NCBI RefSeq assembly: GCF_044647545.1
Contig: NZ_CP172818.1
Direction: 5' to 3' (one strand)
Length of the DNA: 64,000 nucleotides
From: Escherichia coli
Lineage (GTDB): Bacteria > Pseudomonadota > Gammaproteobacteria > Enterobacterales > Enterobacteriaceae
Shown in pieces: positions 35,117 to 36,766 of the stretch. Positions within the stretch are counted from its first letter, which is position 1. The number at the start of each line of letters is the position of its first letter. The translations under genes and the position numbers were made by a program. The notes below the pieces were generated by a model. That model was not told the DNA's origin. It saw nothing but the letters and a program-made list of their open reading frames with translations, and did no database searches.

Positions 35117-36766
35117 TTAGTCCATTAATAATTGTCGGGTCAGCGTTTCGATATAGTTCTCATCAAGCCCGGTGGGATAACCATCAAAGGCCAGGTGCAG
35201 ATACTCATGGGTTAAATCGAGCCGATCCTGAAGCGTAAAGAAGTTACGAATAAACAGCCGTTTCTGCTGCCGATCGGTATAGGGGAAACCTGAGATTAAA
35301 CGACAGACCGCAAACACGTCTGGTTCGTTGTACCCCATCTCGCCTTGTAATATACGCCGCCACTGCGGCATTTTTTTCGCCAGCCAGGCTTTCGCTTTGG
35401 GTAATAACTGGCAGGTTGAGCGTGGCGCTCCCCAGCGGCTAAGGCTGTTGTCGGGATAAGCAAACGCGAGTATCTGGTCGTAACGCTCTCCCTGCCCCGC
35501 CTGGGCCGTGGCTTGCCGCCAGGAAAGCGTCCCTTCGGTAGCGCGACTGCCGTGATAATGAACCGGATCGCCCGCATAGATAAGATCCTGCGTCCAGGCG
35601 GTCATCGTTCGCGCCCCCGTGGTAGCTGGCGAAGCCGAAACACGCTGTGTGGCGCTGCTGTCAGGGATGGTCAGGCAATCGCCTTCCCGATTGGCGTTTT
35701 GCTGTAAAAAAGTGCGTATCGCCACGGTCATGGCTTTCGCTGCCTCAGGGGGCGTACTTTTCGCCTCGCGATCCAGAACTCTGGCAACATACTCTTCACG
35801 ATCGAGATGCGACTGCAATTTCAGTTTGCCCTTTTCGCTCAGTAAGGTCGTCTCACCGTGGCTGACAAACGTAATGTGGTTACCATTGGCGAACGTCACA
35901 CGATAGCGCCCATTAAGTACGCCGGGTTTTACTGCCGTCGTACTCTTTTCCGCTGCGATTTTCTTCAGCGGATAGCGGGCAAACAGCTCCACCTCTACAC
36001 ATTGCCCACTGGCAACCTGCGTCGGCACTGGCAAAACCCGATTAAGCACCGTCGCATAACGGGTCAGTACCGTTTTGCTGGTGCCACTGCCAGTCACCCA
36101 TAGCGGTGTACCATCGGTTAACCAGCCGGCAAAACCACCCTGACGGATTTCCTGTTTATTATCGGCAAACCAGCTCCAGGTTTTCACCCGTACCCGACTA
36201 CCGAGCATAGATGCGACACCGATTTTCGCCTCGTCCAGCACCACATCCAGTAAGACTTCCTGAGCTTTGTTTTGCGCGGGTAACGTCGCTAATGAATCAA
36301 GCAGTGATTTAACCGTTACCGAGGTTTCTGGCTTCAGCGTAGTAAGAGACGCTAACCACGCAGGTGCCTGACGCTGTTGCCAGTATTGCCCCCACACATC
36401 TGCGCCAATATGCAACCGCTGCGGCGCAAAATAGAGCCCACAGGAACGTACCAGCGCGGTATCGCGCGTTATGCTCTCCCCTGCCTGACAACAATAAACC
36501 TCTTCCGGGGAGTTTCCGCGACACTGGTAGGGCTGCTCCGGTTGATGGGTATCCTCCAGCCAGGCGTAAACATACAGTTTCCATAAACTCCCTAACGGCG
36601 TGGTGAGCGTGTCAGGTAATGCCGAGACTTTGGTCACGCCTGACGACGATAACTGATACAGTTGGTCATGCTGCGCGCCCCGCAGCGCCAGTTGTAACGA
36701 CGTCTCCTCCGCAAGCGTTGGCAGAGTAACCAACGCTAATAGCCAGACGATTCTGCGCCAGTTCAC
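35117..36766 (-). CDS. yfaQ: Secreted protein YfaQ (DUF2300 family); contains a C-terminal HEYLH motif
   Basis: 549-aa ORF with signal peptide; GTG start abuts the yfaS stop. Confidence 0.9.
   Translation of the reverse strand: MNWRRIVWLLALVTLPTLAEETSLQLALRGAQHDQLYQLSSSGVTKVSALPDTLTTPLGSLWKLYVYAWLEDTHQPEQPYQCRGNSPEEVYCCQAGESITRDTALVRSCGLYFAPQRLHIGADVWGQYWQQRQAPAWLASLTTLKPETSVTVKSLLDSLATLPAQNKAQEVLLDVVLDEAKIGVASMLGSRVRVKTWSWFADNKQEIRQGGFAGWLTDGTPLWVTGSGTSKTVLTRYATVLNRVLPVPTQVASGQCVEVELFARYPLKKIAAEKSTTAVKPGVLNGRYRVTFANGNHITFVSHGETTLLSEKGKLKLQSHLDREEYVARVLDREAKSTPPEAAKAMTVAIRTFLQQNANREGDCLTIPDSSATQRVSASPATTGARTMTAWTQDLIYAGDPVHYHGSRATEGTLSWRQATAQAGQGERYDQILAFAYPDNSLSRWGAPRSTCQLLPKAKAWLAKKMPQWRRILQGEMGYNEPDVFAVCRLISGFPYTDRQQKRLFIRNFFTLQDRLDLTHEYLHLAFDGYPTGLDENYIETLTRQLLMD

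Follow-up and report, generated by a model that had tools for sequence, protein, structure and literature searches.

Does the yfaQ gene, which lies directly downstream from a macroglobulin gene in Escherichia coli, encode a metallopeptidase, and which substrate would such an enzyme cleave? The question was raised by a preliminary description of the window analyzed here, a stretch of 64,000 nucleotides of the E. coli chromosome, in which an HExxH sequence, the minimal motif of zinc metallopeptidases, had been noticed near the C terminus of YfaQ. The yfaQ coding sequence occupies positions 35117 to 36766 of the minus strand, starts with GTG, and specifies 549 residues. It appears in the list of open reading frames (ORFs), and RefSeq names its product "YfaQ family protein" in a strain whose operon is 100% identical. 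Positions 34336 to 43661 (9.3 kb) are 100% identical to the corresponding DNA of strain IMT16316 and of several other strains. The plus strand reads gtgcagatactcatg at positions 35195 to 35209, and the reverse complement, catgagtatctgcac, encodes H520-E521-Y522-L523-H524, i.e., two proposed metal ligands and a general-base glutamate. The location first given for the motif and the peptide quoted with it, DRLDLTHEYLHLAFDGYPTGLDENYIE, were both exact. Among all six-frame ORFs in the window that encode 200 residues or more (21,942 residues in total), HEYLH is the sole HExxH sequence, and 0.009 occurrence is expected by chance from the composition of YfaQ. A lone five-residue motif is nevertheless little proof, and the weight of the argument is carried by conservation and structure.

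Searched exhaustively with phmmer, 1.84 billion cluster representatives yielded 292 matches with E values of ≤1e-3, which define a small family. Alignment of YfaQ with 61 full-length homologues (28 to 49% identity to YfaQ; 62 sequences in total, mean column identity of 26%) revealed only 21 invariant columns, three of which are H520, E521, and H524. The motif was absent from just two representatives, both of which are truncated at or before HEYLH. A genomic scan limited to one genome per species returned 272 relatives, and 80 loci from named species were kept. The sequence HE[YF]LH was present in all 80 loci, which span Escherichia, Citrobacter, many Pseudomonas species, Aeromonas, Methylobacter, Massilia, Janthinobacterium, and the Lysobacterales and include Pseudomonas aeruginosa PA7. 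Conservation among DUF2300 homologues, which the preliminary description had proposed as a check of the motif, was thus found for each of the three key residues. The counterpart of YfaQ in P. aeruginosa is MagE (PA4488), as judged from its COG5445 assignment, its operon position, and its signal peptide. MagE is a 61.7-kDa protein whose gene comes fifth in the magABCDEF operon, directly after magD (PMC3735191), and the PA7 orthologue carries HEYLHLAFRAHP...DENYVE.

Conservation extends beyond the five residues, with the consensus H-E-[YFW]-[LVIMC]-H-[LIVMF]-x-[FLYM]-x-x-H-P-x-G-x-D-E-x-x-I-E-x-x-A-R. Residues P531, E536, E540, and A543 are each conserved in approximately 90% or more of the 62 sequences. 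The acidic residues that had been noted downstream from the motif as a possible source of a third ligand belong to the sequence E536-N-Y-I-E540 (positions 35147 to 35161, minus strand; family consensus D-E-x-x-I-E), in which E536 is conserved at 92% and E540 at ~88%, with Asp in most of the other sequences. The remaining candidate ligand is residue 530 (positions 35177 to 35179, minus strand), which is Tyr in YfaQ and His in ~85% of the homologues. Among the 80 loci, 70 have His at this position, giving the spacing HExxHxxxxxH, and Tyr is found in the Enterobacterales (Escherichia, Superficieibacter, Entomohabitans, Citrobacter youngae, and Enterobacillus) and in Methylobacter. The same His-to-Tyr substitution occurred in at least two separate clades (loci L007 to L011, L064, L072, L076, L078, and L079). 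Such an interchange would be expected of an auxiliary ligand or of a residue stabilizing the transition state.

Modeling of full-length YfaQ by AlphaFold2 with the family alignment afforded a predicted local distance difference test (pLDDT) score of 93.6 and a predicted template modeling (pTM) score of 0.89. Residues 446 to 549 (positions 35120 to 35431, minus strand) form a separate C-terminal domain, which retained the same secondary structure when modeled alone (pLDDT of 94.8). In the predicted structure, a helix (residues 456 to 473) is followed by three strands (486 to 489, 496 to 498, and 503 to 506) and by helices 512 to 526, which carries HEYLH, 531 to 534, which is short, and 536 to 548, which opens with E536 and holds E540. 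The modeled layout is that of a minimal zincin, in which a backing helix is accompanied by a sheet that passes, through its last strand, into the active-site helix, itself followed by a "glutamate helix." The predicted structure thus shows several of the features that define zincins (MEROPS clan MA-like fold), namely, HExxH within an alpha-helix, a backing helix together with a beta-sheet, and an edge strand preceding the active-site helix.

Foldseek searches with the C-terminal domain ranked selecase first (probability of 0.96; E value of 0.011), followed by IrrE/PprI, proabylysin, an M48 peptidase, Wss1, BlaR1, and BepA. Structure prediction, the second check that had been proposed, therefore placed HEYLH on a helix, in a domain modeled with high confidence; nearly all of the best structural matches of this domain are zincin metallopeptidases. 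Searching all PDB sequences with the family profile gave selecase as the sole match of this domain, with E values of 0.2 for the domain profile and 1.8 for the full-length profile; in the alignment, the RIYV strand and "laHEyLHl" are paired with "IYI ... LAHELLHL." In some family members, weak Pfam matches to Peptidase_M78, SprT-like, and the putative metallopeptidase family DUF6782 were detected. These three independent lines concur on a zincin fold, and none of them provides a secure family assignment. Foldseek matches obtained with the full-length model were dominated by beta-lactamases and penicillin-binding proteins (PBPs) aligned to the N-terminal domain and were uninformative on HEYLH.

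A phmmer search of PDB sequences with the single YfaQ sequence returned nothing, the above matches being obtained with family profiles only. The NCBIfam models revealed no peptidase family in whole YfaQ and in four isolated C-terminal domains, apart from a 14-bit match to M3 in one member. A profile of the C-terminal domain, compared to a set of 5.8 billion proteins, retrieved DUF2300/YfaQ entries only, mostly fragments, with no other architecture or functional name. We also considered and rejected a metzincin site, since the Gly position of the extended metzincin motif, HExxHxxGxxH/D, is occupied by Phe, Leu, or Tyr (HEYLHLAFxxHP) and since the 25 residues separating H524 from the end of the protein are all helical, leaving no room for a Met-turn subdomain.

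The closest known counterparts are the minigluzincins (selecase MJ1213, proabylysin, and projannalysin), which are soluble minimal zincins of ~100 to 110 residues related to the cores of M48 and M56 peptidases; the YfaQ domain comprises ~100 residues. Wss1 and Spartan (WLM and SprT-like zincins) differ from YfaQ in being cytoplasmic or nuclear proteases that act on DNA-protein cross-links, whereas YfaQ has no DNA-binding context. In addition, the +6 His is not universal in the YfaQ family, Tyr being present at this position in E. coli.

Since the general-base glutamate is invariant in addition to both histidines, and in view of the predicted fold, a catalytically competent zincin site is the best reading of HEYLH. 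We estimate at roughly 60% the probability that HEYLH is the active-site motif of a zincin-type metallohydrolase domain of ~100 residues (446 to 549) that ends YfaQ, with a site that would bind a metal ion and be catalytically active. The reading of this domain as a putative metallopeptidase is well supported by conservation and by the predicted fold, the two checks proposed at the outset, neither of which refuted it, and is much stronger than the motif by itself would warrant. In a mechanism modeled on that of zincins, Zn2+ would be held by H520 and H524 of the active-site helix and by a third ligand. This ligand would most likely be E536, in the style of gluzincins, with E/D540 one helical turn later. 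E536 is favored because it opens the following helix, one turn before E/D540, in a layout resembling the gluzincin ExxxD sequence, and because it is better conserved than residue 530. His or Tyr at position 530 might be an alternative ligand or might stabilize the transition state; alternatively, the site could be of the Wss1 type, HExxHxxxxxH, with H530 as a ligand. E521 would activate the water molecule, and the strand formed by residues 503 to 506, just before the helix, would align a peptide substrate.

Several observations weigh against this reading. No Pfam or NCBIfam peptidase model reached its threshold with YfaQ, and sequence links to peptidase families are weak. The Foldseek E values of the C-terminal domain are modest (0.011 or greater). 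E. coli and its relatives carry Tyr where most homologues have His at position 530. Zincin-like proteins that are not peptidases exist. The assignment of a substrate, discussed below, draws on the neighboring domains and on genetics only. The operon is eroding, independently, in some E. coli lineages, with lesions in yfaS in this genome and in K-12 and in yfaQ in strain ZYB39. Finally, although MagE has a signal peptide, it was obtained in cytoplasmic fractions (PMC3735191).

The rest of the protein provides the context in which the domain would act. YfaQ is predicted to be a secreted protein composed of three domains, a PBP/beta-lactamase-like domain with an SxxK motif, a SpoIID-like domain in which the catalytic Glu is kept, and the zincin-like domain. 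Residues ~1 to 19, MNWRRIVWLLALVTLPTLA (positions 36710 to 36766, minus strand), form a Sec signal peptide predicted from the sequence and from the low pLDDT of residues 1 to 20; a Sec signal peptide with a signal peptidase I (SPI) site has been reported for YfaQ (PMC12282094). Six cysteines of YfaQ are invariant or nearly so, C82, C92, C93, C109, C452, and C488 (positions 35303 to 36523), and the invariant pair C452 and C488 sits inside the zincin-like domain. The conservation of these cysteines suggests that they form disulfides, hence a periplasmic location, which conflicts with the cytoplasmic fractionation of P. aeruginosa MagE.

The PBP/beta-lactamase-like domain (residues ~22 to 245; positions 36032 to 36703, minus strand) contains S60-x-x-K63, S108-C109-G110, and K195-T196-W197. 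In the 62-sequence alignment, S108, C109, K195, and T196 are invariant and S60 and K63 are at least 97% conserved. Foldseek matched this domain to class A and class D beta-lactamases and to the transpeptidase domain of PBP3 (E values of about 2e-6 to 4e-5), and a profile match to the PBP 7rd0 aligned GSxWK with GSVFK and SCG with SCN. YfaQ deviates from the PBP motifs by the Gly at the third position of motif 2 and by the replacement of the Gly of KTG by Phe or Trp. In view of the bulky aromatic residue at the latter position, a peptidoglycan ligand may be either acylated by this domain or only bound.

Residues ~256 to 445 (positions 35432 to 36001, minus strand) form a beta-rich region followed by the SpoIID-like domain (residues ~312 to 445; positions 35432 to 35830). 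SpoIID matches were obtained with Pfam (E value of 1.4e-5 over 63 residues, 312 to 374) and, by profile, with the PDB entry 4rwr (E value of 8e-4). Invariant E334 (positions 35765 to 35767) aligns with the catalytic Glu of SpoIID, RE334 being paired with SE(M) in 4rwr, and Y326, R329, V330, R333, D369, Q374, and R375 are also invariant in this region. With the NCBIfam SpoIID/LytB model TIGR02669, the score of YfaQ was 18.2 bits for a cutoff of 83.3.

A study of E. coli published in 2025 divided YfaQ into two parts only, resembling a transpeptidase at the N terminus and SpoIID at the C terminus (PMC12282094), and the text of that article makes no mention of zinc, HExxH, or a metalloprotease. 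The literature on MagE describes no catalytic domains (PMC5764988, PMC3735191), in contrast to the three-domain reading of YfaQ. More generally, no HExxH, zinc, or metalloprotease feature was found in the literature on DUF2300, yfaQ, PA4488, MagE, and yfaS, and the database names for the C-terminal domain are all "DUF2300" or "YfaQ family." Pfam DUF2300 (PF10062) matches YfaQ twice, at residues 84 to 205 and 412 to 532 (within positions 35171 to 36517; E values of 2.7e-45 and 5.4e-43), and all 57 C-terminal domains examined match this model. The possibility that the two regions are a tandem repeat was rejected, since no homology was detected by BLASTP or hhalign (probability of 0.15%) and since the predicted folds are different. 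The Pfam model thus seems to be a composite, and "tandem DUF2300 domain-containing protein" is a misleading name for two unrelated regions located in different folds.

Which substrate would the putative zincin domain process? Peptidoglycan stem peptides or cross-links are our tentative choice, although we place the likelihood of this assignment somewhat below an even chance. Peptidoglycan is favored because the domain is fused to two cell wall enzyme folds, because SpoIID-type enzymes act on peptide-stripped glycan strands, and because genetics also point to the envelope. SpoIID works with the SpoIIP amidase/endopeptidase in sporulation cell wall degradation. In YfaQ, the zincin domain could work alongside the SpoIID-like domain in the same manner as the SpoIIP peptidase/amidase prepares the glycan strands for SpoIID. 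YfaQ would thus join a SpoIID-like domain, with an aligned catalytic Glu, and a putative peptidase in a single protein. The parallel has limits, since SpoIIP is not a zincin and since the SpoIID match of YfaQ is far below the NCBIfam cutoff (18 versus 83 bits). Regarding genetics, deletion of yfaQ led to wider cells and revealed phenotypic links to deletions of mepK, mepS, nlpI, and other peptidoglycan and envelope genes (10.1101/2025.02.11.637708 / PMC12282094). The mag operon of P. aeruginosa guards against VgrG3 and Tae1, two type VI secretion system (T6SS) effectors that target peptidoglycan (PMC12663445).

The preliminary description had suggested instead that YfaQ and the adjacent macroglobulin form a self-contained protease/inhibitor module. 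The genetic linkage underlying this proposal was confirmed and extended. In the window, atoSCDAEB is followed by the minus-strand genes yfaP, yfaQ, yfaS, yfaT, yfaA, and gyrA. The yfaS gene (positions 36767 to 41386; RefSeq start at 41281) encodes a type II alpha-2-macroglobulin, i.e., one devoid of the CxEQ thioester motif, and is a pseudogene here. Upstream from it are yfaT (positions 41305 to 41928; DUF1175, Pfam "MagC," NlpC/P60-like), which is present in 69 of the 69 loci with enough upstream DNA, and yfaA (positions 41925 to 43613; DUF2138; COG4685, the COG assigned to MagB). Directly downstream from yfaQ is yfaP (positions 34336 to 35112), which belongs to COG4676, the COG assigned to MagA and MagF. 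In 79 of the 80 loci, yfaQ comes immediately after the macroglobulin gene, the sole exception lying at a contig end, and yfaP follows yfaQ in all 80. Each of the 69 loci with sufficient flanking DNA has the order DUF2138, DUF1175 (MagC), thioester-less macroglobulin, DUF2300, and YfaP, and this arrangement is shared by two metagenomic homologues that are very distant. Membership of yfaQ in the thioester-less (type II) macroglobulin operon yfaA-yfaT-yfaS-yfaQ-yfaP, which corresponds to magABCDEF in P. aeruginosa, is therefore essentially obligate. The yfaS stop codon ends at position 36767, abutting the GTG start of yfaQ at 36766; the ATG of yfaP, at 35112, is 4 nucleotides past the yfaQ stop; and in the locus of one distant homologue (L003), the macroglobulin gene has an 11-nucleotide overlap with the DUF2300 gene. 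This tight packing is consistent with translational coupling. A PADLOC search returned no match for the proteins of the operon, which is therefore not a catalogued antiphage defense system.

In this genome, an in-frame TAG codon at positions 39272 to 39274 of yfaS replaces the CAG (Gln) codon of other E. coli strains, in agreement with the RefSeq flag "internal stop." Counted from the start of the longest ORF, this is codon 705, and counted from the RefSeq start (41281), it is codon 670. Of 5,426 complete E. coli genomes, 50 carry the TAG allele and at least 3,392 the CAG allele. The putative YfaQ protease is thus encoded without an intact macroglobulin partner in this genome. In E. coli K-12 MG1655 (positions 2329798 to 2334402), yfaS is also annotated as a pseudogene; in strain ZYB39, yfaS is intact and yfaQ contains an internal stop.

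Cleavage of the macroglobulin is the main alternative to a peptidoglycan substrate and the closest workable form of the protease/macroglobulin module, even if we regard it as unlikely. The zincin domain would then be a dedicated protease for YfaS/MagD, responsible for cleavage of the bait region or for maturation, and the operon would encode its own activating protease. In favor of this possibility are the position of yfaQ immediately behind the macroglobulin gene, with which it is often contiguous or overlapping, the in vivo cleavage of MagD from 165 to 100 kDa by a protease that was not identified (PMC3735191, PMC5764988), and the lower levels and altered processing of MagD following deletion of magE (PMC5764988). 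However, the 100-kDa form of MagD was lost upon deletion of magB or magC, whereas deletion of magE led to additional forms of higher mass (PMC5764988). Furthermore, a stable complex of MagD and MagE was not observed, nor was MagE recovered by coimmunoprecipitation (PMC5764988, PMC3735191); the role proposed for MagE by the authors is that of a chaperone or a function in signal peptide cleavage (PMC5764988). A macroglobulin protease also leaves the fusion to PBP-like and SpoIID-like domains unexplained and fits poorly with a lineage in which yfaQ is intact while yfaS is a pseudogene. The module is one option rather than the most likely one. Peptidoglycan peptides are as likely a substrate, or a likelier one, and peptidoglycan is at least as strongly indicated by the PBP-like and SpoIID-like domains of YfaQ. 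Both substrates could be combined if YfaQ/MagE were the catalytic engine of the type II macroglobulin system, a single secreted protein with an acyl-serine (PBP-like) domain, a glycan-cleaving SpoIID-like domain, and a minimal zincin protease, which senses or repairs damaged peptidoglycan and whose zincin domain also cleaves MagD/YfaS (165 to 100 kDa) and thereby arms it, the protease and the macroglobulin forming a surveillance module that guards the cell wall, for example against peptidoglycan-targeting T6SS effectors. This scheme is no likelier than macroglobulin cleavage itself.

The C-terminal domain might also have the zincin fold without being a peptidase, acting as a pseudoenzyme that binds peptide stems or Mag partners, with or without a metal ion, or as a hydrolase of another bond, like the ribonuclease YbeY. 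This explanation appears improbable, as the general-base Glu is strictly invariant in the family in addition to both His residues, a pattern typical of retained catalysis, and as a periplasmic setting beside two cell wall enzyme folds favors a peptide or amide substrate. Still less probable, in our view, is a sensor-protease resembling BlaR1, in which the PBP-like domain would be acylated by, or would bind, a cell wall ligand (a D-Ala-D-Ala stem or a damage product), thereby switching on the zincin domain, which would cleave a target and trigger the macroglobulin complex. YfaQ does pair, in one polypeptide, the two fold types of BlaR1 and MecR1, namely, a PBP/class D-like domain and a gluzincin-like HExxH domain, the SxxK Ser and Lys residues are at least 97% conserved, and the proteins matched structurally by the zincin domain include BlaR1. 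In contrast to YfaQ, which is soluble, BlaR1 is an integral membrane protein with an N-terminal zincin and a C-terminal sensor, whereas the order is reversed in YfaQ, with a SpoIID-like domain in between. Finally, short HExxH sequences occur by chance in many proteins, but a fortuitous and functionless HEYLH is effectively refuted by invariance of the motif in homologues down to 28% identity and in each locus kept and by its location in a helix of a zincin-like fold.

According to conservation and to the predicted structure, the C-terminal domain of YfaQ is thus an unannotated member of the zincin superfamily within a known protein family and a known operon. The type II macroglobulins MagD and YfaS lack a thioester, and the accessory proteins encoded by their operon had no assigned enzymatic activity, even though this operon contributes to virulence and to resistance to peptidoglycan-targeting T6SS effectors. 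The public name "tandem DUF2300 domain-containing protein" is due for revision. The predicted zincin site of YfaQ and, by extension, of MagE, together with the adjacent PBP-like and SpoIID-like domains, provides this poorly understood envelope system with concrete residues, S60, E334, and E521, and with two candidate substrates, namely, peptidoglycan peptides and the macroglobulin.

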